Source: a virus
DNA: 38,805 bases
Virus genome (UHGV): UHGV-0123934
Strand: one strand, 5' to 3'
Below the pieces are notes generated by a model. It worked only from the letters and a program-made list of their open reading frames with translations, was not told the origin of the DNA and made no database searches. The position numbers and the translations under genes were made by a program. This document shows positions 5,735-35,137 of this stretch, piece by piece (position 1 is the stretch's first letter; each line of letters starts with the position of its first letter).

Positions 5735-5845
5735 AAACTCCGTCTATCGGCAAGTATGATTCCGATTTCGATGCCAAAGATAATAATATTTGCCGGTATC
5801 GGCAAATTATAAATAGAACTTTTATTAGATAATAAATGTGCTGAA

Positions 5846-9112: not shown

Positions 9113-9143
9113 TGCGGACAATTTGTGAGAGCTTAAATGATAT

Positions 9144-12815: not shown

Positions 12816-12819
12816 TATT

Positions 12820-13440: not shown

Positions 13441-14582
13441 AATGTTAATGCAATCTGCGTTCGGGAAGGAATAGAAATAATACGCTTTCTATTCCCTACT
13501 TTTATTTCAGCAGTGACCGGAATAGTGTCCGCATATTCAGCAGTAATCATGTGATTGTTCCCTCTTATTGCAGATAAATAGACGAACCGCATATCTGTTT
13601 CTTGTGAAGTCATGACCGGCATCTGGAGATGCTCGTTGAAATGTTTGATCTCTTTATTTTGCGTTCGTTGCGAAACGAATTCTTTATGTGCTGCTATTCG
13701 ATTAGCAATAACTTCGTTCATTTGGTCAACCGATGATGAATGAATATTATCGGCTATAATATCTATAAACTTATCATCAATTTCATAACCAATACTATTG
13801 CGATTGCTCATGATAGATGCAATCGTAGTTGTACCGGTTCCTAAAAAAGGATCCATTACCGTATCTCCTTGCAACGAATACATATTGATTAGACGGTATG
13901 GAACTTCCAATGGATAGGCTGCACTCCTGTCTCGACTTTCTGCTGATATTTTTTGTTTGGTACCTTTTATATTGTCCCACAAATCGGAAAACCACACATT
14001 GCGTTCCTCCCAAAAGAACGAACTCTCACGGCGTTTCTGTTTGTCTATTGCAGATTTGAATTCGCGTTTACCTCCTTTGCGAAAAATCAAAATCCATTCG
14101 TGTTCCAATGTTACATATGCTCCTGCAGGAAGCATTCCGGACCCCATAAATTTATTTGGAGCATTCGTTTGCTTCCTCCAAATAATGTTTGGAAGATTTA
14201 CATACCCGTGAGCGGTGAAATAGTTAATTATACGGGAATGATTGGAGTATAAAGCAAAATTGCCATTGAATGTTCGCGTCGCATCACCGACATTGATACA
14301 GACGATTCCACCCGGGACAAGGACACGTGTCACCTCATCCCATACTTTATCCAGCTCTTGATGCATTAATTCAAAAGCCGCATCCGGCTGGTTTTCATCA
14401 AGGGCATTTGCAATACAAGGATTTTGTTTGCTTAATATCTCATCCCACATTTGAATCATGGGATATGGCGGAGATGTAACGACTAACTCGACCGAGTTGT
14501 CATTAATTTCTTTCATCTGTTGGGCAGCCCCAGTATATATGCTATGCGTTGTCTTCATAATTTCAAAGCAAAGATAATTCAT
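13437..14582 (-). CDS. DNA methyltransferase, beta-class amino-MTase (N4-cytosine or N6-adenine)
   Basis: Motif IV TSPPY near the N-terminus and motif I DPFLGTGTT further C-terminal (IV before I = beta class). Confidence 0.85.
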   Translation of the reverse strand: MNYLCFEIMKTTHSIYTGAAQQMKEINDNSVELVVTSPPYPMIQMWDEILSKQNPCIANALDENQPDAAFELMHQELDKVWDEVTRVLVPGGIVCINVGDATRTFNGNFALYSNHSRIINYFTAHGYVNLPNIIWRKQTNAPNKFMGSGMLPAGAYVTLEHEWILIFRKGGKREFKSAIDKQKRRESSFFWEERNVWFSDLWDNIKGTKQKISAESRDRSAAYPLEVPYRLINMYSLQGDTVMDPFLGTGTTTIASIMSNRNSIGYEIDDKFIDIIADNIHSSSVDQMNEVIANRIAAHKEFVSQRTQNKEIKHFNEHLQMPVMTSQETDMRFVYLSAIRGNNHMITAEYADTIPVTAEIKVGNRKRIISIPSRTQIALTF

Positions 14583-17249: not shown

Positions 17250-17602
17250 TGGATTTCAAGAAACATCTGATCGCGCTTTTGGAGCGTGAGATTCCAGAAT
17301 TGGCGGATAAGATTCAAGCCGGTGCGGTCGATGCCCGGACGCCTGCGCCTTTCGCCGCGTTCTCCGTACCGGAAGAGACGCCCGTAAGGACGCTACACGG
17401 CATCGTCGGCTATCGGACGATGTTCGAGGTAGCGGTCTATGACAGCAGGTTCTCCGGTGCGGAACGCCTCAAGCATCGGGTGATCGCCGCCTTGGAGGGT
17501 GCGGAGTTCGACGGCAAGCGCAGCCGCTTCGTCTCCTCGGCGGCGGAATACTATGCAGACTACGACGTGCACGGTGCGACGATGACATTCAGAATTGTTT
17601 AA
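17246..17602 (+). CDS. putative tail completion/terminator protein
   Basis: 118-aa ORF overlapping upstream stop (ATGA), last gene of the head-tail joining block; no motif. Confidence 0.4.
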   Translation: MMDFKKHLIALLEREIPELADKIQAGAVDARTPAPFAAFSVPEETPVRTLHGIVGYRTMFEVAVYDSRFSGAERLKHRVIAALEGAEFDGKRSRFVSSAAEYYADYDVHGATMTFRIV

Positions 17603-18242
17603 CCCAATCCGTAAAATCGAGTTTTATGAGTTGCCAGATTTTATTTTCAAGACAAACAGGGTCGGGATCACCATCCGCTCTCGTAAAATCGGTCAATCCC
17701 GCAAGGCATTCTTCGCGCGATGCTCCGTAGGGATATCGTGCTGCGTATAAAGCGAGCAGCTGCTCGATAGAATAGGCATTATGAAGAAGATGCAAATCCC
17801 AAAAGTCCTTTTTACGGCCGCCGCGGGCGATAACATCCATCTTCATCGCAACGATGTCGTCTACGGACGCCATACGGATCGTATCGTGCTGCTCTGCCGG
17901 GCGGATGAAGTCATCCGTATAGAACAGGTCGAGTTTTACGGACTTTTCCCGGTTCTGTCCGATGATATATGAGGCCCCGAAGCCGACGATTTCTCCGCAA
18001 TCACCCTGACAATAAGGAAACTCTTTGCGCAGAATATCCTGCAATTTATGGAAATCCAAAGATCTATACTCGGCATCGGTAAATAGATCTATATCGTCGG
18101 ACATACGATGTCCATAGCGCAAACTGAGCGAGGTGCCGCCGACAAGGCGGAACGGGGCGAATGCTTCGAGAGTCATCAGATGTTCGAGTGACGACCGCAG
18201 AATGGGTTTGACAGTATGGTATTGCAACGCTTTATGCTTCAT
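17589..18242 (-). CDS. nucleotidyltransferase, AbiEii/AbiGii toxin-like (DUF1814-like)
   Basis: N-terminal FRLVGGTSLSLRYGHRMSDDIDLF (GGT...S.DIDL polymerase-beta-like NTase signature); start overlaps upstream partner. Confidence 0.75.
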   Translation of the reverse strand: MKHKALQYHTVKPILRSSLEHLMTLEAFAPFRLVGGTSLSLRYGHRMSDDIDLFTDAEYRSLDFHKLQDILRKEFPYCQGDCGEIVGFGASYIIGQNREKSVKLDLFYTDDFIRPAEQHDTIRMASVDDIVAMKMDVIARGGRKKDFWDLHLLHNAYSIEQLLALYAARYPYGASREECLAGLTDFTRADGDPDPVCLENKIWQLIKLDFTDWVKQF

Positions 18243-18753
18243 AATCGAGATATTGCTTCAGGTTCTTTTTGATAACCGATGAGAATGGAGATGACGGCGA
18301 TAATCCGATCTTGCTTAAAATGGTTTCTCGACCATAAAAACGGATGGTTTCGATGATCTCTTCTTCATTGCCTCGCTCCATTACGCGATTGATAACGTAA
18401 CTGCTATGGGCATCCCAATTGATATTGTCGAACGATGTGTCCCAAAACAGGGAAGGTCGGTATTTTTCGAGATCCGGATGGTGAGCGGACGAAAGTTTTC
18501 GCTTCTCCTGCACAATGTCGTAGTGAACCTGCAGGGTCATGAGTATGCCTTCCTCTAATGCGAGCGCATGTTCGATTCGCAACGACAGCGGAATATTCAT
18601 CGACCTGCGGCCGCGAATAATGGCGCTTATGGTTTGGGGGTGCTCACCGATAGATTTAGCGAACCGACCGCTTTTCAGGTTTCGATTATTCAGCTCGCGT
18701 TGTAAGAAGAGTCCCGGATGTACTCCTTTCAGTATGTCGATTAAATTGTTCAT
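18232..18753 (-). CDS. HigA-like HTH antitoxin/regulator with C-terminal extension
   Basis: VHPGLFLQREL ... ISAIIRGRRSMNIPLSLRIEHALALEEGILMTLQVHYDI resembles the HigA/VapI antidote HTH; 11-nt overlap with the NTase gene; ATG at 18753 (track start 18762 is TTG). Confidence 0.6.
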   Translation of the reverse strand: MNNLIDILKGVHPGLFLQRELNNRNLKSGRFAKSIGEHPQTISAIIRGRRSMNIPLSLRIEHALALEEGILMTLQVHYDIVQEKRKLSSAHHPDLEKYRPSLFWDTSFDNINWDAHSSYVINRVMERGNEEEIIETIRFYGRETILSKIGLSPSSPFSSVIKKNLKQYLDYEA

Positions 18754-18817
18754 ACAACGCAAAAGTAAACATATTTGTTTATTTTAACAAATTTTATGCC
18801 GAAATATTTTTACGCTT

Positions 18818-19258
18818 ATGCCTGAAACTTACGGAAACAAACAGGTCGTCCAAGGCGAGGACATCATCCTCTTGGTGGACGATAAGACGACGCTCCACGC
18901 CACGACGCACACGCTGAAGGTGGATTTGGAGATGAAAGAACTGCGCACGAAAGATACTGACGGCAAAGAGAAGTGGCCGGGCGATGTTTCGTGGTCGGTG
19001 GACGGCGACGGACTGGTGGTCATCGACGATTCGATCGAGAACAGCCATACCGCCGAGGAAGTCCTCGACTTGGTGCTTCAAAAGAAACTCGTCGAGGTGG
19101 TCGTCAAATCGCCGCTCACGGGACTCGCGAAGATGTACACGGGCAAAGCCTACATCACGACATTCTCGCTCTCGACGCCTGCGGGCGATAACGCTTCTTA
19201 CAGTTATTCGCTTACCGGCAGCGGCAACCTGACACCTGTAGACAAACCTAAATCCTGA
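18818..19258 (+). CDS. phage major tail protein (TP901-1/phi13-like)
   Basis: C-terminal YTGKAYITTFSLSTPAGDNASYSYSLTGSGNL typical of siphovirus major tail proteins. Confidence 0.8.
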   Translation: MPETYGNKQVVQGEDIILLVDDKTTLHATTHTLKVDLEMKELRTKDTDGKEKWPGDVSWSVDGDGLVVIDDSIENSHTAEEVLDLVLQKKLVEVVVKSPLTGLAKMYTGKAYITTFSLSTPAGDNASYSYSLTGSGNLTPVDKPKS

Positions 19259-19263
19259 CCGCA

Positions 19264-19623
19264 ATGAAAGAGATCATCATTCAAGGTACGCCGCGTCCGA
19301 TCCATTTCGGACTGCGCGCCATCGACGAGTTCGTCAAGCAGCGCGGTGCGGAGTTCGGGCAGACGGTCGCTTCGACCGACGCTCTCGGATCGCTGGACAG
19401 CATCGTTGCGCTGACCGCTACGGGTCTCAACGAGGGCGCACGGCGTGCCGACAGCGACCGTCGCTACACCGAAGACGAGGTGTGGGACATCTTCGACGAG
19501 GAGCCGTCGCTCATCCTCGCTGTCTCGGAACTCTTCGTTGAGAGCATCGCGCCGCTGACGGATAAGTTGGGCGACCTCTCAAAAAACGGGAAACGCCCGA
19601 CGACGGGGAGCCGCAAGCGGTAA
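19264..19623 (+). CDS. tail assembly chaperone (gpG-like)
   Basis: 119-aa acidic protein right after the major tail gene; slippery heptamer near its 3' end. Confidence 0.6.
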   Translation: MKEIIIQGTPRPIHFGLRAIDEFVKQRGAEFGQTVASTDALGSLDSIVALTATGLNEGARRADSDRRYTEDEVWDIFDEEPSLILAVSELFVESIAPLTDKLGDLSKNGKRPTTGSRKR

Positions 19624-19946
19624 CCTACGAGCGGTGGTTCGCCATCGCCGTCGGGCAGATGGGACTGGCACCCGAAGCCTTCGAACGCCTGACGCCCGCC
19701 GAGTTCATCTATGCGTGGCTCGGCTGGGCGAAACGCGAGGAAGACCGGCAGCGGCAGGCATGGGAGCGCGAACGGTGGGCGGTATGGGTTACGACTTGCA
19801 TCCAGCTTGACCGCAAAGACCGCCGACCGATGACCGAGATGTTCCCGCTGCCGTGGGAGGAACCGACGGCTCCCGCAAAGCAAGAACCGACCATGCAGGA
19901 ACGCATGGAACGAATCGAAGAAATGAAACGATGTATCCGAAAATAA
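19264..19946 (+). CDS. tail assembly chaperone G-T fusion via predicted -1 programmed ribosomal frameshift
   Basis: A_AAA_AAC heptamer at 19581-19587 in the gpG frame; the -1 frame is open from the slip site through ORF 19659..19946 (KKRETPDDGEPQAVTYERWFAIAVGQMGLAPEAFERL...). Confidence 0.55.
19581..19587 (+). other. -1 slippery heptanucleotide A_AAA_AAC
   Basis: Codons tca aaa aac in the gpG frame; manual frame tracing shows no stop in the -1 frame downstream. Confidence 0.55.
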
Positions 19947-20440
19947 CCTTGATTATCCTGACGATCGCAGCCAGCGGCTGCTCTCCGCTCCGAAGCACGC
20001 GATCCGAGCGGCACGAAACGCTTGCCATCTCCGACTCGACTGTTACGGAACTGGTCCGGCAGGAGTTCGGGCGGCAGATCGGAACGCTCCGCCGAACCGT
20101 CGTGGAGTTTTATCCGCCGACGGAATATCCGGAACCGAGCGACGATCGATTCCCGAATCCGATCGATACGCTCCGTGCCGTTCTTTCGCCTCCGAAAATT
20201 CCGGCGGCGAGCGCTTCCCGACAGCCGGTCAAACGCATCTCCTATACCGAGGTATCGATGCAGAATGACCGAACTATCCTTATCGACAGCATTTCGCATA
20301 GCCGCATCAACACGGCAGCCCGCAACGACGTGCAGGAGCAGACCGACGAGCAACCATCCTCCGGTGTCGCGTGGCTCAAATGGGCGACGGCGCTCGTCGC
20401 ACTGACGCTTCTGCTGCTCTTATTCCTCAAACTCCGATAA
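19931..20440 (+). CDS. putative lipoprotein with C-terminal membrane anchor
   Basis: ATG 19931 inside ORF 19853..20440; signal peptide with lipobox LTIAASGC; C-terminal hydrophobic helix WATALVALTLLLLLFL. Confidence 0.5.
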   Translation: MYPKITLIILTIAASGCSPLRSTRSERHETLAISDSTVTELVRQEFGRQIGTLRRTVVEFYPPTEYPEPSDDRFPNPIDTLRAVLSPPKIPAASASRQPVKRISYTEVSMQNDRTILIDSISHSRINTAARNDVQEQTDEQPSSGVAWLKWATALVALTLLLLLFLKLR

Positions 20441-20450
20441 CCGAACCCAT

Positions 20451-21233
20451 ATGGCAAGATTGAAAACTCCGATTTCATACTATGGCGGCAAGCAGATGCT
20501 TTTGAAGCATATCCTGCCGCTGATTCCCGAACATACGCTCTACACGGAAGCCTTCTGCGGCGGCTGCGCCGTGCTGTTCGCCAAGCCGCCCGCGCAGTGC
20601 GAAGTCATCAACGACACGAACACCGAATTGGTGAACTTCTACCGCGTGGCGCAGACCCAGTATGCGGCACTCAAGGCGATGATCGACGCGACGCTCCACA
20701 GCCGCGAGATACACGCGCACGCACGGCATATCAACGAGCATCCGTCGTTCTTCACGCCCGTCGAGCGGGCTTGGGCTGTATGGGTCTGCACGAAGTTGGG
20801 CTTCGCCTCGATGATCGACGGAACGTTCGGCTACGACCGCAGCGGTACGACGACGCTGAAACTCCGCAATGCGAAAGAGGCCTTCACCGAGGAGTTGTGC
20901 GGACGCCTCGGCCGCGTTACGGTCGAGTGCGAGGACGGCATCGATGTCATCCGCCGCTACGACTGTCCCGAGGCGTTCCACTTCGTCGATCCGCCCTATG
21001 TCGGCAGCGACTGCGGACACTACAACGGTACGTTCGACGAGGAGGATTTTTCGAGGCTGCTCGACACGCTCGCAACGGTCGAAGGGAAGTTCATGCTCAC
21101 GATGTTTCCGCACGAGAAGATCGAACGCCTCGCCGCCCGGCACGGCTGGACGATCCATCGGCTCGACCGCACCATCACCGCCTCGAAAGTTTCCCGCCGC
21201 CGGCAGGAGGAGTGGATTACGACGAACTACTGA
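20451..21233 (+). CDS. dam: DNA adenine methyltransferase (Dam-like, alpha class)
   Basis: N-terminal ISYYGGKQMLLKHILPLIP...EAFCGGCAVLF and motif IV FVDPPY. Confidence 0.85.
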   Translation: MARLKTPISYYGGKQMLLKHILPLIPEHTLYTEAFCGGCAVLFAKPPAQCEVINDTNTELVNFYRVAQTQYAALKAMIDATLHSREIHAHARHINEHPSFFTPVERAWAVWVCTKLGFASMIDGTFGYDRSGTTTLKLRNAKEAFTEELCGRLGRVTVECEDGIDVIRRYDCPEAFHFVDPPYVGSDCGHYNGTFDEEDFSRLLDTLATVEGKFMLTMFPHEKIERLAARHGWTIHRLDRTITASKVSRRRQEEWITTNY

Positions 21234-21240
21234 TACCGAC

Positions 21241-22017
21241 GTGGGTACATTCGCTTACGATAACCCCGCTTACATCGCTTCGTGCTCGTTCGGCAAGGAT
21301 TCGATCGCTACGATCCTCCTTGCCCTCGAATATGGCGAGCCGCTCGATGCCGCTGTCTTTTCGGAGGTGATGTTCGACCATCGGCGCAATATCAGCGGCG
21401 AGATGCCCGAACACATCGAGTGGATCTATTCGACGGCGATTCCGCGTCTTGCCGCCTTGGGCGTACGGGTCGATGTCGTCCGTTCGGAGAAAGACTATCT
21501 TACGTTATTCCATACGGTCATAGGGAGCAGTACGCATAAGGGTATGCTGCGCGGCTGGCTCATCGGCGGCAAGTGCTGCGCCAATCGCGACCTCAAAATC
21601 CGGCCTATACATCGCTATTATGCCCGTTATCGAGAGCAAGGCATCGTGCAGTACGTCGGCATCGCGGCCGACGAACCGAGACGCCTCGCGCGGATGCAGG
21701 ACAAAGGGTATAACCGTAAAACGAGTCTGCTCGCCAAGTACGGGTACACCGAGGCGGACGCCCGACGCAAGTGCGAAGAATACGGTCTGCTGTCGCCTCT
21801 CTACCGCACCTCGCATCGGGGCGGTTGCTGGTTCTGCCCCAACTGTCGCATTCCGGTCTTCGCCGAACTGCGCCGCCGCCATCCTGAATTGTGGCGTGAA
21901 CTGCAACTGCTTTCGAAGGTCGGAAATAAGTCCTCCGAAGGTTTCAAATACGGGCTGACTTTCGAGGAGGTCGAGCGGCGGATGGATCTCTTCGAACACT
22001 CACCGACGCCATTCTAA
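21241..22017 (+). CDS. PP-loop ATPase, PAPS reductase/QueC-like family protein
   Basis: PP-loop SFGKDS near the N-terminus, C-terminal Cys cluster GGCWFCPNC; start uncertain (GTG 21241 is the first start after the dam stop). Confidence 0.65.
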   Translation: MGTFAYDNPAYIASCSFGKDSIATILLALEYGEPLDAAVFSEVMFDHRRNISGEMPEHIEWIYSTAIPRLAALGVRVDVVRSEKDYLTLFHTVIGSSTHKGMLRGWLIGGKCCANRDLKIRPIHRYYARYREQGIVQYVGIAADEPRRLARMQDKGYNRKTSLLAKYGYTEADARRKCEEYGLLSPLYRTSHRGGCWFCPNCRIPVFAELRRRHPELWRELQLLSKVGNKSSEGFKYGLTFEEVERRMDLFEHSPTPF

Positions 22018-22020
22018 ACA

Positions 22021-22105
22021 ACTGAAAATAAATACGATAATAGTCGCCGAATAACTTGCGTGTTCCGAATAACGATGTTATGTTTGTCATGCAATAAACA
22101 ACTAA
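22021..22105 (+). promoter_or_regulatory. Promoter/leader repeat copy 1 (-33 TTG 22056-22058, -7 TAtgTTTG 22079-22086)
   Basis: Conserved about 85-bp element also at 22497, 23311, 23957 and 24588; motif spacing 20 nt fits the Bacteroidota sigma promoter pattern. Confidence 0.6.
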
Positions 22106-22118
22106 AATAGAGCGAATT

Positions 22119-22422
22119 ATGAAAAAGACAGTCATCGTGAAAGGCGAGCGTCGCAAGGTAGAATTCGAGTATCGAGTAATCGATAAATTGGTTAGTTGCC
22201 AAAAAGCAAACGATGGGATAAGCAGGGGGATGGCTTCCGGTCGAAACCTATTACCACGAAGCCGTTGCCATTATCGACGGTGTAGAATATCCGAGCGTTC
22301 GACGCTGGCATACCAATGGCGGCAGGTATTCGGAACAGTTCTTTTACAACGGACATTTCTATGATTCGTATAAGAAAATGATCGAGCGCATTCTCGAATC
22401 GGCAGACGAAAGTAACTCTTGA
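22119..22422 (+). pseudogene. small gene apparently frameshifted at a G5 run (or a sequencing indel)
   Basis: Frame 0 ORF 22119..22364 loses protein-like character after the G5 run at 22225-22229; the +1 frame continues as a convincing sequence (WLPVETYYHEAVAIIDGVEYPSVRRWHTNGGRYSEQFFYNGHFYDSYKKMIERILESADESNS) to a stop at 22420-22422. Confidence 0.45.
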
Positions 22423-22444
22423 ACCTCGATGGAAGCAGATGGAA

Positions 22445-22475
22445 AAACAGGCTCCGTACGGAGCCTGTTTCGATC
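22445..22475 (+). terminator. putative intrinsic terminator
   Basis: Perfect 10-bp stem aacaggctcc/ggagcctgtt with gtac loop, followed by tttcg. Confidence 0.5.
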
Positions 22476-22496
22476 TTTCGCTGTAAGCGTAAATAA

Positions 22497-22580
22497 CTGA
22501 AAATAAATATGATAATAGTTACCGGATAACTTGTGTGTTCCGAATAACGATGTTATGTTTGCAGTACGATAAACAACTGA
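22497..22580 (+). promoter_or_regulatory. Promoter/leader repeat copy 2 (-7 TAtgTTTG 22554-22561)
   Basis: Near-identical to copy 1. Confidence 0.6.
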
Positions 22581-22606
22581 ATAATAGACGATTAAAACAC
22601 CCGAAC

Positions 22607-23029
22607 ATGACAAGTGCACAGGCAAAACAGATCGCATCGAACTATATGCGGCAGCAGAGCGATTATGTATTTTCGGCGGTAACGGTTAAAAGCCTCGCTC
22701 CGGCGAACGGACCAGTCAAGGTGTGGCTCACCACCGAAGACGACTACGGGGACGAACTGATCGTCGAGGTCGAGATGGACCCGCAGTCGAATGAGATCCG
22801 CTGGAAGAAGATCTGCAACACGGGACGCCTATCCGAATATCTGAAGCCGGCTACTCGGATCGATAAACTTTCGGCGGGGCAGCGCTTCCGGCTGCAAGGC
22901 GACTGCGTGGTTTACGAGTTCGTGGACAATGTAAAGGACCGCAGCAATATTCCCTATATCATCCGACGGGCAGACCGATCCGGTTGCGTATCGAGAGTCG
23001 GATGGCAGGAAGTTTTTCCTATCGAGTAA
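22607..23029 (+). CDS. hypothetical small protein
   Basis: ATG 22607 downstream of promoter copy 2 (ORF track start 22535 lies inside the promoter repeat). Confidence 0.5.
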   Translation: MTSAQAKQIASNYMRQQSDYVFSAVTVKSLAPANGPVKVWLTTEDDYGDELIVEVEMDPQSNEIRWKKICNTGRLSEYLKPATRIDKLSAGQRFRLQGDCVVYEFVDNVKDRSNIPYIIRRADRSGCVSRVGWQEVFPIE

Positions 23030-23081
23030 CCGATAACCGCGCACCTTGCCGAAAGGCAGGTGCGCATAAAACGATACGACG

Positions 23082-23312
23082 ATGAAACTCCGCCGAACGA
23101 AAACCGGAACTTACACGATTGCTGGTATTACCGCAACTCAATATCGCACCCTTGCGGCAGTGCTTATGACCGCCGATGAGCGTTGCTTCGACGAACAGGA
23201 CGAGGACGGCAACTATTACAGCAACGACGATTTCGTCTGCTCGCTCGATGGCGATGAACGGGTGGCTTTGCGACAGGTGTGCGACGCACTTCGGCAACGT
23301 GTAAAATATTGA
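23082..23312 (+). CDS. hypothetical small acidic protein
   Basis: 76-aa ORF; preceded by hairpin with GAAA loop (23037-23065). Confidence 0.4.
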   Translation: MKLRRTKTGTYTIAGITATQYRTLAAVLMTADERCFDEQDEDGNYYSNDDFVCSLDGDERVALRQVCDALRQRVKY

Positions 23313-23390
23313 AAATAAATGCGATAATAATTAATGGAAAACTTGCGTGTCCCGAATTATGATGCCATCTTTGCAGTGCAATAAACAACT
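23311..23390 (+). promoter_or_regulatory. Promoter/leader repeat copy 3 (degenerate -7)
   Basis: Shares aacttgcgtgt and gcagtgcaataaacaact cores with the other copies. Confidence 0.5.
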
Positions 23391-23405
23391 AATATAGAGC
23401 GCATT

Positions 23406-23738
23406 ATGAGTACAAGAGCAAGAATCGGCGTAAGACTTCCCGACGGAAAAATCAAAAGCATTCATATATGGCGGGACGGACATCCCGATACGTTGGGCGA
23501 AACATTGTCAGCGCACTACAACACATTGGAAACGGCAATGGCACTGGTCGAACGAGGCAACATAATCGATGTGGAAGCACGTCTCGAAGAGTGCCGGTTC
23601 GAGAAATCGAATGAACGGTACGATACCGAGCCTCGGATTTATGAATCGGTTGCCGCCTATGAACGAGAAATCGAGGAGGATATATGTTACAAATATCTCT
23701 ATCGGGACGGCAAGTGGGAATACCGGGCGGTCGATTAG
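23406..23738 (+). CDS. hypothetical small protein
   Basis: 110-aa ORF with ATG start downstream of promoter copy 3. Confidence 0.5.
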   Translation: MSTRARIGVRLPDGKIKSIHIWRDGHPDTLGETLSAHYNTLETAMALVERGNIIDVEARLEECRFEKSNERYDTEPRIYESVAAYEREIEEDICYKYLYRDGKWEYRAVD

Positions 23739-23772
23739 TAACCGACTTCCGATCGTAAGGAGCGAATGCTCC

Positions 23773-23802
23773 GAGCCTCCGACGGGAGGCTTTCTCTCGT
23801 TT
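23773..23802 (+). terminator. putative intrinsic terminator
   Basis: Stem agcctcc/ggaggct, loop gacg, then T-rich ttctctcgttt. Confidence 0.5.
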
Positions 23803-23821
23803 CATTCAGTTGTTTATTGCG

Positions 23822-23856
23822 ACCGGAGCCGTGCATCGTGTACGACTCCGGTTTTC
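23822..23856 (+). terminator. putative intrinsic terminator preceded by inverted leader motif cagttgtttattgc (23807-23820)
   Basis: Stem accggag/ctccggt followed by tttt; paralogous to the element at 25080-25133. Confidence 0.5.
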
Positions 23857-23956
23857 GTTCAAAGGCGGGACATTGTTTCTGCAACGGATCTTCGGCAGCA
23901 TGTATATTTACCATATGGGACATGCTTGATAAATAGTTGATATTCTTTGAATTAAG

Positions 23957-24014
23957 TTGCCGATAAACTTGCGCGTTCCGAATAATGATGTTATGTTTGC
24001 AGTGCAATAAACAA
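23957..24014 (+). promoter_or_regulatory. Promoter/leader repeat copy 4 (-7 TAtgTTTG 23992-23999)
   Basis: Core gccgataaacttgcgcgttccgaataatgatgttatgtttgcagtgcaataaacaa. Confidence 0.6.
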
Positions 24015-24044
24015 TTGAACTACAATCTATTAAACGACTCGATT

Positions 24045-24263
24045 ATGAATACTGCGAATCGAAAAAGAACGGAAATCGACGCCGAACTCGACCGGTTGGA
24101 GGTCGAATTCGAGAAGAACCGCAAGGAGATGCAACGCCTTGCCGACGAAAACAGACGTGCCGGCAACCGCTACGGCGAATTATCGAATGCGAATCACGAC
24201 ATCAACAACCGGATCCTCACATTGCTCGCTGAGCGTTGGGAATCGGAAGAGACGGCTGATTGA
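24045..24263 (+). CDS. hypothetical small coiled-coil protein
   Basis: ATG 24045 downstream of promoter copy 4. Confidence 0.45.
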   Translation: MNTANRKRTEIDAELDRLEVEFEKNRKEMQRLADENRRAGNRYGELSNANHDINNRILTLLAERWESEETAD

Positions 24264-24338
24264 CGAAACGAGAGACGACCCCGCCGAGAAATCTTCCTCG
24301 GCGGGGTTAAGACCCGAAACCGGAAAACACATAAAGAG

Positions 24339-24536
24339 ATGAAAACGATGAATGCAAATGCAACGGTAGGCGACAAGATTCGCATTATCCATCTTCGCGA
24401 CGAGGACAGCCGTTACGACGGCAAGGTGGGAACGATCGAGTTCATCGACTCGCTCGGGCAATTGCACGGTACATGGGGCGGGTTGGCAGTCATTCCCGAA
24501 GTCGATCGGTTCGTAATTATCGAGAAAGCGGAATAA
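24339..24536 (+). CDS. hypothetical small protein
   Basis: 65-aa ORF; preceded by 10-bp perfect stem hairpin 24279-24306 (no U tract). Confidence 0.4.
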   Translation: MKTMNANATVGDKIRIIHLRDEDSRYDGKVGTIEFIDSLGQLHGTWGGLAVIPEVDRFVIIEKAE

Positions 24537-24587
24537 TCGCCTGCAACGATAATGCTCGGTTCCGTCATCTTTTCTGAACGTCTAATT

Positions 24588-24672
24588 TACTGAAAATAAA
24601 TACGATAATAGCCGCCGAACAACTTGCATGTTCCGAATAACGATGTTATGTTTGCAGTACGATAAACAACTA
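24588..24672 (+). promoter_or_regulatory. Promoter/leader repeat copy 5 (-7 TAtgTTTG 24647-24654)
   Basis: Near-identical to copies 1 and 2. Confidence 0.6.
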
Positions 24673-24687
24673 AAAAAAGAGCGAATT

Positions 24688-24975
24688 ATGAGAACGAACA
24701 TCGACCGGTTTTTAGAGAGATTCCCGAAGAATGCCACGGATTGGGCGCAGGCGACGGACGAGGTGCACGATATGGCTCGCAAGGCTCGCGAATTGTTGGA
24801 AGAGTACGAAGGCGTAATCGTCGAACCGGTAAATTTCCAGGCTATCGAGACCCCGGCCGAGTGGAATACCGAAGGTCGCGAGTTCATCCTGACGAATTTC
24901 GATCGCATGGCGGATAGAACCAAAGAGCGCTTCTACGACTACTTCCGCGAGTGGTTCGAAGGCGAAGAGGAATAG
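24688..24975 (+). CDS. hypothetical small acidic protein
   Basis: ATG 24688 downstream of promoter copy 5. Confidence 0.5.
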   Translation: MRTNIDRFLERFPKNATDWAQATDEVHDMARKARELLEEYEGVIVEPVNFQAIETPAEWNTEGREFILTNFDRMADRTKERFYDYFREWFEGEEE

Positions 24976-25094
24976 ACCGACGCACGGATGCTCCTCGTTC
25001 AAGCTGCGGGGAGCATCCGTCCTAACCCCGGAGCAGGGTTGCACACGTCTCTTTCGATAGGAAATCTATCGTGCTCCATCAGTTGTTTATTGCA

Positions 25095-25133
25095 GCCGGA
25101 GCCGCATTATGTGCGGCTCCGGTATTTTATTTT
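25095..25133 (+). terminator. intrinsic terminator preceded by inverted leader motif cagttgtttattgca (25080-25094)
   Basis: Perfect 11-bp stem ccggagccgca/tgcggctccgg, 5-nt loop, then attttatttt. Confidence 0.7.
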
Positions 25134-25175
25134 GTATGTAAATAATGATTAAATTTGTAACGAAAACAGAATACG

Positions 25176-26216
25176 ATGAAAGCCTATACCTATATCGAAC
25201 ACGGGCGGTTCGAGCTGCTCGACAAGCCGGAACCCGCCTTGCAGGACCCTCGCGACGCCATCGTGCGCGTGACGCTCGCGAGCATTTGTACCAGCGACCT
25301 GCATATCAAGCACGGCAGCGTACCCCGCGCCATTGAGGGCATCACCGTCGGCCACGAGATGGTCGGCATCGTCGAGGAGGTCGGGTCGGAGGTGCGCAGC
25401 GTAAAGGTCGGCGACCGCGTGACGGTCAACGTCGAGACCTTCTGCGGCGAATGCTTCTTCTGCAAGCGCGGCTACGTGAACAACTGCACCGATCCCGACG
25501 GAGGCTGGGCACTTGGCTGCCGCATCGACGGCGGGCAGGCGGAGTATGTCCGCGTGCCGCATGCCGATCAAGGGTTGAACCGCATTCCCGATACGGTGAG
25601 CGACGAGCAGGCATTGTTCGTGGGCGATATTCTGGCTACAGGTTATTGGGCGGCGAAGATTTCGGAGATTGCGCCCGACGACACGGTCCTGATTATCGGT
25701 GCCGGACCGACGGGTATCTGCACGCTGCTTTGCGCAAGATTGAAGCGCCCGAAGCGAATCATCGTCTGCGAAAAATCGCCCGAACGGCGGCGATTCGTGC
25801 GGGAACACTATCCCGAGGTGCTGACGGTCGCACCGGAGGAGTGTCGCGAGGCGGTTTATGCGAACAGCGACCGTGGTGGCGCCGACGTCGTGCTGGAGGT
25901 GGCCGGTGCGGAGGATACGTTTCGCCTGGCGTGGGAGTGCGCCCGCTCCAATGCGACGGTTGTTATTGTTGCGCTCTACGACCGGCCGCAGATGTTGCCG
26001 CTGCCCGACATGTACGGCAAGAACCTCACCTTCAAGACGGGCGGCGTAGATGGCTGCGACTGCGCCGAGATACTCCGGCTGATCGAGGCGGGCGAGATTG
26101 ACACCACGCCGCTCATCACGCACTGTTATCCGCTCGGCCGCATCGCCGAGGCATACGACCTCTTCGAAAACCGCCGCGACGGAGCGATCAAGGTGGCTAT
26201 CGATTGTACCGAATAG
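25176..26216 (+). CDS. zinc-dependent alcohol dehydrogenase family protein (MDR superfamily)
   Basis: Catalytic-zinc signature GHEMVGIVEEVG, structural-zinc Cys cluster CGECFFCKRGYVNNC, Rossmann motif LIIGAGPTG. Confidence 0.85.
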   Translation: MKAYTYIEHGRFELLDKPEPALQDPRDAIVRVTLASICTSDLHIKHGSVPRAIEGITVGHEMVGIVEEVGSEVRSVKVGDRVTVNVETFCGECFFCKRGYVNNCTDPDGGWALGCRIDGGQAEYVRVPHADQGLNRIPDTVSDEQALFVGDILATGYWAAKISEIAPDDTVLIIGAGPTGICTLLCARLKRPKRIIVCEKSPERRRFVREHYPEVLTVAPEECREAVYANSDRGGADVVLEVAGAEDTFRLAWECARSNATVVIVALYDRPQMLPLPDMYGKNLTFKTGGVDGCDCAEILRLIEAGEIDTTPLITHCYPLGRIAEAYDLFENRRDGAIKVAIDCTE

Positions 26217-30287: not shown

Positions 30288-32780
30288 ATGGACGCTAAGA
30301 TTGAAAAACTTAAATTCAGCCTGCGACACAATAATCCTAATTTATTTGTTGGTGCAGGGTTTTCGTTAGGTGCTACTCTGCAAAATAATGCACCGATTCC
30401 AAGTGGAGCGACATTAAAAGATGGCATTATTACAAATATCCTTAAATACCCGAAATCCAGCCCGGAATATAATGAACTTTCCATATTACCATTGTGTAAA
30501 GTTTGTACTATTACAGTCGCAGAAAAAGGTCGTGAAGAACTTTATTCTTATTTACAGTCCATATATCAAAATGTGCAACCAGCCGAATTCCATAAATCAT
30601 ATATTAAATATCCTTGGCATAACATATATTCGACCAATATCGATGATGTAATTGAAAATGCTTGTGCAATTGAGAATGTGCCTATTATTATATATAATGA
30701 GCCACATAACCCTAAACCAAAACAAGATAAAAGTCTTGTATTATATAAATTGCATGGCTGTGTTAATAACATGGACGCAGGCGTTATTTTTGATGAGGAA
30801 GAATATATCGATTCTATTTTAGATAGAACTGACCATAGATTTGGTAATTTATCTATTGAATTTCAAACAAAAGATTTTGTTTTCGTTGGATCTGATTTTG
30901 ATGATTTTAACATTAATTATTATTTAAGTTTATACTCAGCAAATGGTACAGATTCAGGCCGAGGAAATTTGTTTTTTATTAATCCAAAGCCATCATATGC
31001 TTTTAAGAGTAGGATAAAGCAGGTTGGAGGAATTTTGATAGAATTCAATGCGAAGCAATTTGCAGAATTGATTGATTCCATAAGATTTGATTTAGAGACA
31101 ATAAACGAAACCAAACTGTCGTATGATGGTTATGTGCGTGTCAAACAATTAAAAGACAATTTGTCGTCAAATCATTACGATTCGGATTTATATCTTGGAG
31201 CGCGTCCGAAATGGACAGATATTTTTTACGATTGGGATATTATTTTATCGCCCGCAATTAAGACATTCATTTCTACATTGGATGATTTTGAAATCGATGA
31301 TAAGAATACTTTGGTTTATGCTATACACGGGCGAGGATATTCCGGGAAGTCTGTACTAATAAAAAGACTTGCTAACATTCTCATTGATGCAAATTATGAA
31401 ATCATTTCATTTGAAGGAAAAAATTTCAACTCCAATAGATTCTTACATTATATAAATAAATCACAATATCACAAGTTTGCATTAATTGTTGATGATGCCA
31501 GTTATTTATATAGCCAGTTTGAATATTTGTGCAAGAAAGTATCTGGAAAAATTAAACTGTGTATTATATCGGCTTCAAGAATATTTCTTCATAACAAGCG
31601 AAAATATAGTCTTGTAAATATAAATAGCGTAGAATACGAGATGACAATAACTATAGATGAAGCTATTGCATCTGATATTATTAACAAATTAAACCAAAGA
31701 GGCTATTTAGGACGTATTCTTCGTTCCTGCCCAGATAAAGATTCTCAAATTCAATTCGCAAAAAATAATACGGATATAGCATCTGCTATTTTTGCTATTA
31801 CATATGGGAAAGATTTCCAACGCCGTTTTGCTGCAGATGTCAATAATATTATCAAAGATGGCAATTATAGAGATCCGCTAATCAAATTGGCAATTTTTCA
31901 GAAAATGCAATTAGCATATTGCCCTCGAGAGTTATTCGTTAGATTATATGGAAAGCGAATTATAGGGATATTGCAACGTATGGAGAATATTTTAAGAGAT
32001 GCGCATTCTCCACGCCTTGAGCTAAAAAATGATTTTATTGGAGATATTATCCTTAAAAATTCAACATCTGTAGAAATAATAAATAGTTTGAAAGAGCTAT
32101 TGGTATATATTTCATCAATGGTTGAAAACACCTCCAATTCTTACTGGAATGAGATTCAGTCTATATTAATGAGAGATAAGTTAGTTCGTGATGTCTTAAA
32201 TATAAAACCTTCTGATTTTAAGCAAATGCTATATGAAATAAGAGAATATTATTATGACAATTACAACTATTGGCTTCAATTAGGAATTGCGGAGCAATTG
32301 GCAGGAGATTATGATAAGGCGTTAATTCATTTTAGCCAAGCACAAATATACGGCCCCAAATCCTATATGGTAAAAAACGCAATTGGTCGCAATTATATAT
32401 TTCAGGCAATTAAAGAATTGGATAATGATATTGCTATAAAATTATTTAATGAAGGGAAATGTATTTTATTTGAATTAATTAAAAATAGAGAAGAATATCA
32501 AGCGAAAGCATATTCAACGCATACATATATTGCTGGATTGATAAGGTTTTATAAACGAAAGCACAATTTGAAAATTTCCTCAAAAGAAGCTAAAGAAGCA
32601 CAGTCTCTTATCAATACAATACGCATAAAATATAAAGGAGATCCAATATTTGAAAATTTAAACTCGACTTTCACTAAATTTATTTTACAACATTCTTCGA
32701 ATATGACATTAAATTTACAAGAGTTACAAATGTCATATAGAAATTGTGTAGATGAAGTGGAATTCATAGATATGGATTAG
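30288..32780 (+). CDS. SIR2-like domain protein fused to P-loop NTPase and helical repeat domain (SIR2-STAND / Avs5-like candidate antiphage protein)
   Basis: SIR2-family motifs LFVGAGFSLGA, IYSTNIDDVIE, LYKLHGCV, FVFVGSDFDDF; Walker A IHGRGYSGKS and Walker B FALIVDDA; C-terminal about 450 aa helical/TPR-like; strongly AT-rich. Confidence 0.75.
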   Translation: MDAKIEKLKFSLRHNNPNLFVGAGFSLGATLQNNAPIPSGATLKDGIITNILKYPKSSPEYNELSILPLCKVCTITVAEKGREELYSYLQSIYQNVQPAEFHKSYIKYPWHNIYSTNIDDVIENACAIENVPIIIYNEPHNPKPKQDKSLVLYKLHGCVNNMDAGVIFDEEEYIDSILDRTDHRFGNLSIEFQTKDFVFVGSDFDDFNINYYLSLYSANGTDSGRGNLFFINPKPSYAFKSRIKQVGGILIEFNAKQFAELIDSIRFDLETINETKLSYDGYVRVKQLKDNLSSNHYDSDLYLGARPKWTDIFYDWDIILSPAIKTFISTLDDFEIDDKNTLVYAIHGRGYSGKSVLIKRLANILIDANYEIISFEGKNFNSNRFLHYINKSQYHKFALIVDDASYLYSQFEYLCKKVSGKIKLCIISASRIFLHNKRKYSLVNINSVEYEMTITIDEAIASDIINKLNQRGYLGRILRSCPDKDSQIQFAKNNTDIASAIFAITYGKDFQRRFAADVNNIIKDGNYRDPLIKLAIFQKMQLAYCPRELFVRLYGKRIIGILQRMENILRDAHSPRLELKNDFIGDIILKNSTSVEIINSLKELLVYISSMVENTSNSYWNEIQSILMRDKLVRDVLNIKPSDFKQMLYEIREYYYDNYNYWLQLGIAEQLAGDYDKALIHFSQAQIYGPKSYMVKNAIGRNYIFQAIKELDNDIAIKLFNEGKCILFELIKNREEYQAKAYSTHTYIAGLIRFYKRKHNLKISSKEAKEAQSLINTIRIKYKGDPIFENLNSTFTKFILQHSSNMTLNLQELQMSYRNCVDEVEFIDMD

Positions 32781-35137
32781 AACCCACCCAACACCTCCGA
32801 CTTGAAGTTCTCTTTTCCGAGAACATACACCAAATCCCGACCCTTGGCAGTCAATTGACCGCCGAGGGTTATTCGTAGGTTCTGCGTGCTGCCGCTCATC
32901 GGAAGCATCGCCTGCAACTTCGACAGCGGCGCGATGACTTCGGGATCCGTACCGGCATTGGGATTGTCGCCGACCATCGCATAGGTAGGACCGTATGCCA
33001 GACCGCCGTTGGCCAATGCCGGCACGCTCTTTTCCGCATTCTTGTTGATGAGCGCCGTCATCACGGCTGCCGCCGCGACCATCGCAGCACCGATGGCGAT
33101 CGCCGCCCATGGGTTCGCGAGGACGGATTTCAACGCCGACTTGAAGGCGATGATCATCACGCCGAACTCGATGAGTTGCGAGCCGATATTTTTCAGAAAA
33201 GAGGCGAACTGCGTCAGGATCGCTTTCATCAGCCCTCCGAATCCCAAATCGCCGGCAATGATCTGCCCGATAGCCTCCGCCGCTGCGACGATGCTGTCGG
33301 CCATAAACTTCGACACCTGCTGATCGAAGCGCGTCATCACCTCCGCAATCGTGGCGTGGACATGCTCCAATGCCGCCGAGAACGACCAGCCTTTCGCCGT
33401 CAGTGCCGTCGTGTAGTTCTCGACGGTCGAGACCGTATCGGCGACGTGCTCCTGCAAGTATGCGCTGTTGTCGTCCGCCCAGCCGTATAACCCTTCGCGT
33501 ACCGCACCGAATATCGCCTGCATCTGCTGCGCGTATTGCGATGTTACGGGTTTCAGATCGCCCATTTTGAGTTTCGGCGCCGGCAGTTCCAACTCGAAGC
33601 CCTCGGGCAGAATGCCGTTCATCTTGACGACGGGTTTCAGGTCTTCGGGCTTGATATTCTTGATCCGCTCCAACTCTTTTTGCAGCTTCTCGATCTCGGC
33701 GTTCGCCGCAGCGATATCTTCGACAGTCGATTCGGGCAGTAGTTTCTTCTTTTCGAGGGCCTCGATCCGCGCCTGCAATTTACCGATGATGCCCGTGCTT
33801 TGTTCCGTCTGCGCGTTGGTTCCGGCGATGGACTTCATCAGCTCCTCGGTCTGCTTGCGAGCCTCGTCCGTTACCTTGTCCAGTTCGGCCTGCGCCTCGG
33901 CCGCCTTCTTCTCCGTTTCGCGTTTCTTTTCGATGGCTGCCGTCAGCAGGTCGTACTCCTTGCGCAAGGGTGCGAGTTTCGATTCGTCGGGTACTTTCTG
34001 CAAGGTAAAACCGGCGACCAATCCCCCGAAATTCGGAACCATCCGCGTCTTGGTCGTCGTGGCGATGATCTCTTTCTGCTCGGCGATATTTTCCTGCAAC
34101 TTGCGTTCGAGCTCGTCGAGCGATTCGGTCTCTGCCATCTCGTCGATCATCTTCTGCTTTTGGATGCGGGCATAGGCAAACGCCGCACCGAGCGCGAGGA
34201 TCGCCGCCATAATCAACCCGACAGGCGAGAGCAATGCCGTAAATCCTGCCGCCAGCATCGGCAGCACCTTGATCACGGCGCCGATTCCGAGCGAAAGGGG
34301 ACCGACCGCTGCGACCAGCCCCGCCACGACGACGATCGTCTGCATCATCGCCGGCGACATCGATTGCAACATCTGCACGACCGTCGAGAGCGCACCCGCC
34401 ACTTTCATCGCGAAAGGCATGATGGCCGCACCGATCTGTTCCAAGAAGTCGCCCCATGCGTTCTTGAGCTGCTGCACGGCTCCGAGTCCCGTTCGTGCGG
34501 CGGCTTCGGCCTGCCCGCCGAACTTGCGCTCCAACTCGTCGAGGATCATCGCCTGCGCTCTGGCTATGTCGCCCGTCTCGGCGAGTTTCTTGATCACCTC
34601 CGCCTGCTCCTTGGAGAAGGCTATGCCGGCACGCGACAGCGACGAGAGCTTCGTCGCGGGATCGGAGAGCGCCTTGCCCAACTGCAACGACGCCGCACCC
34701 AAATCCATCTCCAACGCCGTGGCGAGGTCCAATGCCAACGCCTGCGTGCGCTTGAAGTTCTCGCCTGTGATATTGGTAAAAGCCAACAGGCGGGCGGTGG
34801 ATTTGTCGAGAATCGTCTCGTCGCCGAAAAGCGTTTTGCTCTGCAACTCCGAAGCGTAGTCGGCCAGCTGCCGGAAGTTGTAACCGACAGCCCGATTCGT
34901 AACCTTGAGCGCCTGCTGCACCTTCGCCTCGGCTTTGGCCTGCACGTCGGCCAAGTGCAGCGACACGCCGCCCAATGCCGCAAGGGGCGCGGTGAGCTTC
35001 AGCGAGAGCGACTTGCCGACGGAGGTCAACTTCTTTTCGAGCGAGCCGAGACCTTTCTCGACCTGCTGCGCCTTCTGCTGGAACTCATACGAGTCGGCTC
35101 CGATCTTGATAAGCAGATCGGCGATTCTTCGGGACAT
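32777..35137 (-). CDS. phage tail tape measure protein (TP901-family-like)
   Basis: 786-aa protein with coiled-coil segments, central hydrophobic helices (IVVVAGLVAAVGPLSLGIGAV, GLIMAAILALGAAFAYA) and a TP901-type N-terminal core. Confidence 0.85.
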   Translation of the reverse strand: MSRRIADLLIKIGADSYEFQQKAQQVEKGLGSLEKKLTSVGKSLSLKLTAPLAALGGVSLHLADVQAKAEAKVQQALKVTNRAVGYNFRQLADYASELQSKTLFGDETILDKSTARLLAFTNITGENFKRTQALALDLATALEMDLGAASLQLGKALSDPATKLSSLSRAGIAFSKEQAEVIKKLAETGDIARAQAMILDELERKFGGQAEAAARTGLGAVQQLKNAWGDFLEQIGAAIMPFAMKVAGALSTVVQMLQSMSPAMMQTIVVVAGLVAAVGPLSLGIGAVIKVLPMLAAGFTALLSPVGLIMAAILALGAAFAYARIQKQKMIDEMAETESLDELERKLQENIAEQKEIIATTTKTRMVPNFGGLVAGFTLQKVPDESKLAPLRKEYDLLTAAIEKKRETEKKAAEAQAELDKVTDEARKQTEELMKSIAGTNAQTEQSTGIIGKLQARIEALEKKKLLPESTVEDIAAANAEIEKLQKELERIKNIKPEDLKPVVKMNGILPEGFELELPAPKLKMGDLKPVTSQYAQQMQAIFGAVREGLYGWADDNSAYLQEHVADTVSTVENYTTALTAKGWSFSAALEHVHATIAEVMTRFDQQVSKFMADSIVAAAEAIGQIIAGDLGFGGLMKAILTQFASFLKNIGSQLIEFGVMIIAFKSALKSVLANPWAAIAIGAAMVAAAAVMTALINKNAEKSVPALANGGLAYGPTYAMVGDNPNAGTDPEVIAPLSKLQAMLPMSGSTQNLRITLGGQLTAKGRDLVYVLGKENFKSEVLGGF

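Follow-up and report, generated by a model that had tools for sequence, protein, structure and literature searches.

Small genes of a temperate Alistipes prophage are probably arrayed behind portable promoter/leader modules

In the virus genome UHGV-0123934, a stretch of 38,805 nucleotides (nt) that we refer to as the window, five copies of one repeat alternate with small genes on the + strand, which raises the question of what the repeats do and how such an array is put together. A preliminary description had taken the repeats for conserved promoter-leader elements, driving a candidate anti-defence or accessory cassette. The window is a siphovirus-like, temperate Alistipes prophage, and we consider it likely that the array is a hyperplastic, moron-type accessory region of this phage, built from portable promoter/leader modules. 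A cassette would consist of a portable module of ~100 nt, one or two small genes and usually a hairpin, and the primary sigma-A RNA polymerase of the host would transcribe each cassette separately, independent of the flanking structural operons. The repeats also double as ~100 bp of portable homology, at which crossovers, as comparison of related phages shows, delete, insert and reorder cassettes and homogenise the copies inside a genome.

A repeat search of the array region returned a single family of five direct copies, all on the + strand and ~104 nt each, which on alignment are 62-85% identical to the reference copy, confirming the five conserved elements of the preliminary description. 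The core pattern TTG..GT.CCGAAT.A.GATG..AT.TTTG is matched five times on the + strand, against 0.00 expected over 100 shuffles, and an nhmmer profile built from 66 unique copies recovered the five array copies and no sixth in the whole 38.8-kb window. In each module, AT-rich sequence comes first, followed by ACTTGCGTGT as an extended -33 box and GATGyyATsTTTG as an extended -7 box. The leader after these boxes begins at about the predicted +1 with (G/A)C(A/G)ATAAACAACT and continues, A-rich and without a Shine-Dalgarno (SD) sequence, up to the ATG. The start codon stands 32 nt past the core in the cases of g1, g4 and g7, and 45 nt past it in the cases of g2 and g5. The leader GCAATAAACAACT is exact in two copies, carries one mismatch in another and two mismatches (ACGATAAACAACT) in the last two. 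Over the 66 unique copies, ACTTGCGTGT, GATG and ATAAAC are invariant, TTG is present in 66/66 and the spacer measures 20 nt; within cassette classes, nucleotide diversity is 0.11-0.18 in the core vs 0.28-0.63 upstream of it.

As RNA, the repeats fold no better than their shuffles (z of 0.01, -2.81, 1.56, 0.93 and 0.47 for copies 1-5), and within the window no Rfam covariance model scored at its gathering threshold and a tRNA scan found nothing. Two other identities were rejected: a structured element, i.e., a PeSL-like stem-loop or an attC-like site, by the shuffle folding (z ~0 in 4/5 copies), and a miniature inverted-repeat transposable element or insertion sequence, given the fixed orientation, the fixed distance to the start codon, the absence of terminal inverted repeats and the lack of dispersal in the window.

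The anatomy of the repeats is that of a promoter of this phylum. In Flavobacterium johnsoniae, the -7 element is TAHHTTTG, with T-12, A-11, T-8, T-7, T-6 and G-5 nearly invariant (Baez et al. 2019, PMC6847099). Four of the five copies present TTG-N20-TAnnTTTG with the -7 box TATGTTTG (TAtgTTTG), the TTG standing within the ~19-21 nt at which the sigma-A -33 element (TTTG/TTG) is expected upstream of -7; the 20-nt spacing given earlier was borne out. The strict Bacteroidota consensus, TTG-N18-22-TAnnTTTG, occurs at nine sites in the whole window (both strands), four of them in the array; a sigma-70 promoter scan was uninformative for this phylum. When the numbering of Baez et al. 2019 (PMC6847099) is applied, the predicted start site is the base with which the conserved leader opens, and the leaders, which lack an SD and have an A at each of -3, -12 and -13, match the expectation for Bacteroidota translation starts. 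These features support the view that the repeats are Bacteroidota sigma-A promoters followed by a 5' leader, the module being a good, if imperfect, match to the primary-sigma promoter of the phylum, in which the invariant T-15/G-14 (GATG) may act as an extended -7 element. The -7 box of repeat 3, CATCTTTG (CAtcTTTG), had been called degenerate. It does differ, but its variant GATGCCATCTTTG recurs at the same cassette position in most relatives, as well as in 5/6 copies of a divergent relative (locus L006), and hence reads as a distinct conserved variant and not as decay.

Behind these modules, seven + strand open reading frames (ORFs) form five cassettes: A (g1), B (g2 and g3), C (g4), D (g5 and g6) and E (g7). 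The claim that a repeat stands upstream of each small ORF thus holds for g1, g2, g4, g5 and g7, whereas g3 and g6 are second genes without a copy of their own. The upstream PAPS-reductase-like gene's stop codon and that of g3 fall within repeats 1 and 3, respectively. Pooled across related loci (13-28 alleles per gene), the ratio of nonsynonymous to synonymous polymorphism (pN/pS) was 0.11-0.23 for all seven ORFs, indicating that they are real protein-coding genes under purifying selection, although in the window itself g1 is a pseudogene. Compared with the intact allele of 101 amino acids (aa) in L004 and L008, it bears two 1-nt deletions, 25 nt apart, one shortening A6 to A5 within an A-run near 22201 and the other turning AGTGGGG into AGGGGG near 22225, at the T preceding a G-run. 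Since the L001 and L081 assemblies have these identical lesions in common, we regard g1 as a genuine pseudogene and not a read error; the intact 101-aa gene is also found in L021 and L038. All of the proteins are hydrophilic, with isoelectric points (pI) of 4.5-6.3 for g2-g7 (4.5-5.2 for g3-g7) and 8.6 for the intact g1 allele.

The preliminary description had also placed hairpin terminators after most genes. Stable hairpins (z -3.2 to -5.7) do follow g1, g2, g4 (three), g5 and g7 (two to three), and the folding z-score scan found none after g3 or g6. As for termination, a strict hairpin-plus-T-run scan retained just two + strand sites, after g4 and g7, while the hairpins following g2 and g5 have no U-tract and sit inside their cassettes; on both strands together, the scan yielded five sites, which is not above the shuffle mean of 4.0. 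Because it lies within cassette B, the hairpin that separates g2 from g3 is a better candidate for an attenuator or stabiliser than for a full terminator. Cassettes C and E end differently, in a second repeat family: AGTTGTTTATTGC, the reverse complement of the +1 leader, stands directly 5' of a conserved terminator and is fused to its hairpin, CCGGAGCC...GGCTCCGG, in two mutually homologous units (23806-23858 and 25079-25133). In cassette E, this terminator is a 13-bp hairpin with a T-run (25095-25133), which directly follows the inverted leader. Among the matches listed for relatives, the inverted leader is perfect at 44/64 terminator-proximal sites. The coordinates of all of these features are collected in Table 1.

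Table 1. Predicted features of the array and its immediate neighbours, in window coordinates
Feature	Position	Strand	Remarks
Dam-type N6-adenine methyltransferase	20451-21233	+	upstream neighbour
PAPS-reductase-like protein	about 21240-22017	+	upstream neighbour
Putative promoter/leader repeat 1 (P-A)	22006-22109	+	AT-rich upstream part; TTG 22056-58; TATGTTTG 22079-86
Leader of repeat 1, GCAATAAACAACT	22091-22103	+	
g1 (cassette A)	22119-22422	+	pseudogene here; weak DUF7381 match
Hairpin after g1, AACAGGCTCCGtacgGGAGCCTGTT	22445-22470	+	z -4.07; tail only partly T-rich
Putative promoter/leader repeat 2 (P-B)	22481-22584	+	long (class II) leader; ATG 45 nt past core
g2 (cassette B, first gene)	22607-23029	+	140 aa
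Hairpin between g2 and g3	23039-23065	+	z -5.13; within cassette B; no U-tract (read from sequence)
g3 (cassette B, second gene)	23082-23312	+	76 aa; no promoter copy of its own
Putative promoter/leader repeat 3 (P*-C)	23293-23396	+	conserved -7 variant GATGCCATCTTTG
g4 (cassette C)	23406-23738	+	110 aa; phrog_1987 (function unknown)
3' end of cassette C	23759-23858	+	two hairpins; inverted leader AGTTGTTTATTGC 23808-23820; terminator hairpin and T-run 23821-23858
Putative promoter/leader repeat 4 (P-D)	23919-24022	+	upstream part divergent; class II leader (GCAATAAACAATT)
g5 (cassette D, first gene)	24045-24263	+	72 aa; predicted coiled coil
Hairpin between g5 and g6	24277-24308	+	z -5.67; within cassette D; no U-tract (read from sequence)
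g6 (cassette D, second gene)	24339-24536	+	65 aa; DUF4314 domain (E 3.6e-9); no promoter copy of its own
Putative promoter/leader repeat 5 (P-E)	24574-24677	+	
g7 (cassette E)	24688-24975	+	95 aa; acidic, pI 4.5
3' end of cassette E	24984-25134	+	long hairpin 24984-25020; inverted leader AGTTGTTTATTGC 25081-25093; then terminator
Zn-dependent alcohol dehydrogenase	25176-26216	+	downstream neighbour; own TAaaTTTG box 25148-25155

How the array is assembled can be read from its relatives. Pattern scans recovered the element in 12 viral contigs, several Alistipes genomes and at least 120 metagenome stretches; the matches listed amount to 136 loci with 275 promoter copies. In every one of these loci but one, all copies lie on one strand, and for 241/275 of the copies an ORF starts 21-104 nt downstream, most often at 32 or 45 nt. 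The first ORFs behind the element group into at least 23 clusters, of which a few are spurious or do not come from phages, and these follow one another in many orders. The full set ABCDE is shared by the window, L004+L005, L021 and L038, while 11 of the listed loci are arranged as BCDE, one as ABDE (L008) and two as BDE (L002, L009). Distant phages have other cargo behind the same module, in the orders f14-f13-A-f9-C-E (L006, L141) and A-B1-D1-f5-f10-C (L092), and further divergent arrays read f5-f8-D1 (L037) and B1-f5-E (L134).

Two of these loci preserve the junctions. In L008, the element before D is chimeric: its left half is that of P*-C, carrying the CC..C variant and the 3' end of g3, whereas its leader is that of P-D, and the switch falls in TTTGCAGTGCAATAAACAA, which both parents have in common. 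In L012, the element before B combines upstream sequence of P-A with the P-B leader, the switch having taken place within the core. The stretches to which these two crossovers map hardly overlap, having ~4 nt in common, which argues for homologous rather than site-specific exchange. Moreover, paralogous copies are 0.73 identical in the window and 0.70 in L006 vs 0.58-0.63 for orthologous copies between both genomes, such that repeat copies within one genome evolve in concert. The comparison thus shows that cassettes are lost or gained through crossovers inside the repeat, and recombination at the repeats has left related phages with differing cargo sets and orders behind the same promoter.

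Site-specific rearrangement would be another route to such variety, with the inverted 13-mers around g4 and g7 serving as invertase sites, or the repeats as attC-like sites of an integron type. Indeed, 13-nt inverted repeats bracket g4 and g7, and a 311-aa tyrosine recombinase is encoded at 3644-4579. Yet the inverted-junction pattern had 0 matches in viral and metagenome collections, as opposed to 55 cassettes in the normal configuration, which largely refutes DNA inversion of g4/g7; the repeats lack attC-like structure (z ~0), and the two mapped crossovers lie in largely separate intervals. We therefore hold this explanation to be very improbable.

Several observations weigh against an array of separately transcribed, portable promoter cassettes. 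At -9, the common -7 variant has a G, a base that F. johnsoniae promoters hardly ever carry there, and the P* variant of copy 3 has C at -12 and so lacks the nearly invariant T-12 (PMC6847099). No terminator separates the PAPS-reductase-like gene from repeat 1 or g6 from repeat 5, hence transcription could read through from upstream, and insulation of the cassettes is incomplete. The activity of the promoters, their start sites and their timing (in lysogeny or early in the lytic cycle) are all deduced from the sequence, and the cargo matches no family or fold of known function in PHROGs, Pfam, NCBIfam, PADLOC and PDB searches. Finally, conservation reaches well past what sigma binding needs, into the spacer and from +1 to +13, so that the mechanism may include a dedicated regulator or some function at the RNA level.

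Two further explanations were considered. In the first, which builds on this surplus conservation, the array would be a co-regulated regulon: the spacer CGTGTTCCGAA, GATG and the leader ATAAACAACT, together with the inverted copy at two terminators, would be operators through which a DNA-binding protein of phage or host switches all cassettes together, possibly by looping the promoter-proximal site to the inverted distal one. The invariance of these motifs over the 66 unique copies and the return of the leader 13-mer in inverted form, in the window as in relatives, are what such operators would call for. So is a near-identical 31-nt core (TTGCGTGTTCCAAAGTGTGATGTTATGTTTG) that we found upstream of genes for 433-aa tyrosine integrases on Bacteroidales contigs that are unrelated, lower in GC and flanked by unrelated sequence (L068, L082, L095, L100, L113 and L125, also L102 and L075), as might befit a shared regulatory target; at L123:49-248, two convergent core copies stand 140 bp apart. 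However, dyad symmetry is not conserved in the motifs, where each of two palindromes, ATAAC/GTTAT and GATGnCATC, is confined to one variant, no candidate regulator was identified, and concerted evolution together with recent common descent can account for much of the extra conservation. A regulon is accordingly a tentative proposal, to which we give a sizeable minority chance. The 31-nt core itself may be a promoter that mobile elements of Bacteroidales have in common, or else a site on which a shared regulator acts; a literature search with core sequences returned nothing relevant.

The second explanation concerns RNA: once cassettes C and E are transcribed, the leader at the 5' end would pair with its reverse complement before the terminator, and the resulting panhandle would guard the 5' end or mask the translation start. 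A 12-13-bp helix between the 5' and 3' ends appears in both the minimum-free-energy and the centroid folds of both predicted transcripts, though such a prediction follows trivially from a 13-nt complement. The inverted copy is retained even in the divergent L006, and two loci have AGTTGTTTATCGT, the exact complement of the ACGAT-type leader, yet some loci have A-C mismatches, the inverted copy is present in just 2/5 cassettes, and covariation was not significant (11.44 Watson-Crick pairs vs 11.09 when shuffled, p = 0.07, 16 unique pairs). End-pairing of this kind strikes us as improbable.

More generally, the promoter module may exceed a promoter and constitute a dedicated control layer for the accessory cassettes. 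The invariance of its leader 13-mer, the inverted copy ahead of the terminators of C and E, and the presence of its core upstream of integrase genes in unrelated Bacteroidales mobile elements would fit such a layer. This layer, which we judge quite unlikely, could take the form of 5'-3' mRNA end-pairing or of a DNA-binding factor bridging the promoter and terminator ends; either, if true, would be common to Bacteroidales mobile elements and not described so far.

What the cassettes carry is less easily read than how they are arranged. Pfam, PHROGs, PADLOC and NCBIfam searches with the array proteins gave just the DUF4314 domain of g6, phrog_1987 for g4 and a weak DUF7381 match for g1, and PDB sequence searches with g2, g4, g6 and g7 gave no match. 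Cargo from related arrays had no known domains except DUF4259 and DUF6237, both below cut-off, and nothing relevant was found in the literature on DUF4314. The g2 family is confined to these phages; its AlphaFold2 model, of moderate quality (pLDDT 79.8), shows an N-terminal helix with a four-stranded sheet and a small C-terminal beta-barrel, for which the fold search returned no significant match and only insignificant PepSY-like (YpmB) and Tudor-like hints. The g4 family, on the other hand, is widespread in phages (900 cluster representatives, with homologues in T4-like cyanophages and in Streptococcus, Erwinia and Yersinia phages); its members are ~110 aa long with the consensus MSTRxxIGxxxxDGxxxSIYCHxDGYP...W. 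It matches no Pfam family, and its confident AlphaFold2 model (pLDDT 95.8) found no similar solved structure in the fold search. The earlier remark that none of the proteins has a function that can be named was thereby upheld by library, PDB and fold searches. The cargo proteins are small, soluble and under selection. Judging from context only, we would guess that they most likely serve phage-host interaction, i.e., host takeover, counter-defence or exclusion.

A narrower version of this guess is that the array is an anti-defence (or anti-repressor) island, whose small proteins block host defence and are expressed at once on infection from strong host-type promoters. In relatives, the array always comes after DNA methyltransferase genes, a self-protection function; these are of the Dam type in the window, where the PAPS-reductase-like gene accompanies them, and in L026, and of N4/N6 or C5 types in L008, L010, L011 and L006. 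The array genes combine small size with individual promoters, differ from one relative to the next and, in the case of g3-g7, encode mildly acidic proteins (pI 4.5-5.2), all of which is typical of known anti-defence loci, and g6 carries DUF4314, a small domain common in mobile elements. Nevertheless, no array protein matched an anti-defence or host-takeover family in PHROGs, or anything in PADLOC, Pfam and NCBIfam beyond domains of unknown function, the PDB searches and both structure predictions gave no significant match, and no HTH regulator gene of the Aca kind lies within the array. We thus regard a dedicated anti-defence island as rather unlikely. Operons for anti-CRISPR (Acr) and other anti-defence functions in temperate phages place small variable genes behind a strong promoter; the array resembles them in its small variable genes of unknown fold between structural genes, and departs from them in having no Aca-type repressor gene, no Acr or anti-restriction-modification homology, and several promoters instead of one.

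An array of portable promoter/leader cassettes has its closest counterpart in the PeSL cassettes of T4-like myoviruses, in which repeated sigma-70 early promoters with AT-rich upstream parts precede ORFans and the end points of indels fall in the repeats (PMC2839356, PMC4122927). There, promoter and terminator activity as well as mini-circles have been demonstrated experimentally (Arbiol et al. 2010, PMC2839356; Comeau et al. 2014, PMC4122927). Like PeSLs, the Alistipes repeats are intergenic, fit the host primary-sigma consensus and have an AT-rich stretch before the first box; the stop codon of the upstream gene lies in this AT-rich part and the downstream start codon at the 3' end of the repeat. 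The motifs are likewise concentrated in a variable region, directly before small ORFans, and the end points of indels or replacements between related phages fall in the repeats, as the L008 and L012 junctions illustrate. Unlike PeSLs, they belong to a host in Bacteroidota, with -33/-7 boxes (TTG / TAnnTTTG) instead of the sigma-70 -35/-10, and to a temperate siphovirus-like prophage instead of a lytic T4-like myovirus. One array of five copies stands against ~50 copies per PeSL genome; the defining stem-loop is absent from the repeat, the terminator hairpins being separate and mostly non-repeated; and the Alistipes module is without SD and is a prediction from sequence. Given the missing stem-loop, the other promoter grammar, the temperate, siphovirus-like phage and the presence of a single array, we would call the array functionally analogous to PeSL cassettes and not a strict member of that family.

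Two broader concepts also apply. Morons, as Juhala et al. reportedly described them in 2000, are autonomous promoter-gene-terminator units inserted between temperate phage genes. The array has a predicted host-type promoter of its own and a 3' hairpin, a composition unlike its flanks (GC 0.47-0.50 vs ~0.59), a position at the edge of the structural region and a presence that varies among relatives, and so appears to fit the concept, with promoter and terminator as predictions; in contrast to classical morons, which are single unrelated insertions with their own promoters, it uses one homologous module that itself mediates exchange. Mobile promoters are said to have been recognised by Matus-Garcia, Nijveen and van Passel in 2012, from genome-wide statistics in bacterial genomes, as homologous promoters before non-homologous genes. 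Here, the same ~31-100-nt promoter likewise stands before at least 23 first-ORF clusters (a few spurious or non-phage) and before Bacteroidales integrase genes, but its copies stand in tandem within the accessory region of a phage, and junctions left by recombination have been documented.

The surroundings of the array accord with the prophage assignment. The window encodes terminase, portal, protease, capsid, major tail and tape-measure proteins and an integrase, and its DNA had no match among GenBank phages; multi-copy arrays of the same element occur in Alistipes contigs assembled from metagenomes, and the host is therefore placed in Alistipes (Rikenellaceae). The + strand block runs from a DnaC-like loader, the integrase, small and large terminase, portal, protease and major capsid through head-tail genes and the major tail protein to the Dam methylase, the PAPS-reductase-like protein, the array and the Zn-alcohol dehydrogenase. 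Downstream, a convergent minus-strand block encodes a tape-measure-like protein, a lysin and large structural proteins. The array, with a GC content of 0.47-0.50 vs 0.585-0.60 in its flanks, is located where the two convergent blocks meet, in agreement with the earlier placement between structural modules (the major tail gene and methylases upstream, the tape-measure block downstream). The major tail and chaperone-like genes (18818-20440) are on the + strand and the tape-measure-like and other large structural genes (32777-35137) on the minus strand, so the tail-gene blocks converge on the accessory region, an arrangement retained in relatives. The Zn-dependent alcohol dehydrogenase, an unusual metabolic gene for a prophage, is kept as cargo right after the array in most related phages.

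Further genes of note lie elsewhere in the window. At 30288-32780 (+), a low-GC (0.31) insert inside the minus-strand tail-gene block, adjoining the tape-measure-like gene, encodes an 830-aa SIR2-like and STAND NTPase protein, a ThsA/Avs-like defence candidate. At 12237-14582, between the protease and capsid genes, another low-GC insert encodes a type II restriction endonuclease (PADLOC REase_II, E 5.7e-66), an MjaI-like protein just under the Pfam cut-off and, on the opposite strand, a DNA methyltransferase. An AbiEii nucleotidyltransferase toxin with an HTH/DUF6922 partner, a type IV toxin-antitoxin or abortive-infection pair, is inserted at 17589-18753 (-) between the head-tail and major tail genes, with a TTG-N-TAnnTTTG box at 18760-18790 (-). 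The low-GC insert at 8480-10250 (+), between terminase and portal, encodes a 368-aa protein combining XRE-HTH with an ImmA/IrrE-type metalloprotease and a 210-aa protein of unknown kind. Finally, a Fic/DOC-domain protein with an N-terminal HTH lies beside the integrase at 4847-5734 (-), with a consensus TTG-N-TAnnTTTG box at 5775-5805 (-).

If the array is indeed built from portable promoter/leader modules, it would extend the shuffling of promoter-repeat cassettes, experimentally documented only in T4-like myoviruses, to temperate gut phages of Bacteroidota with another promoter grammar. The ~31-nt core would offer a sequence handle for locating the fast-changing accessory genes of Alistipes phages in metagenomes, and the promoter module could serve as an expression part for Alistipes and other Bacteroidales. 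The array would also amount to a catalogue of ~20 small selected proteins, at least one family of which (g4) is widespread and has a confident model with no known fold, and its cargo proteins are candidates for phage-host interaction screens in an abundant, little-studied gut genus.

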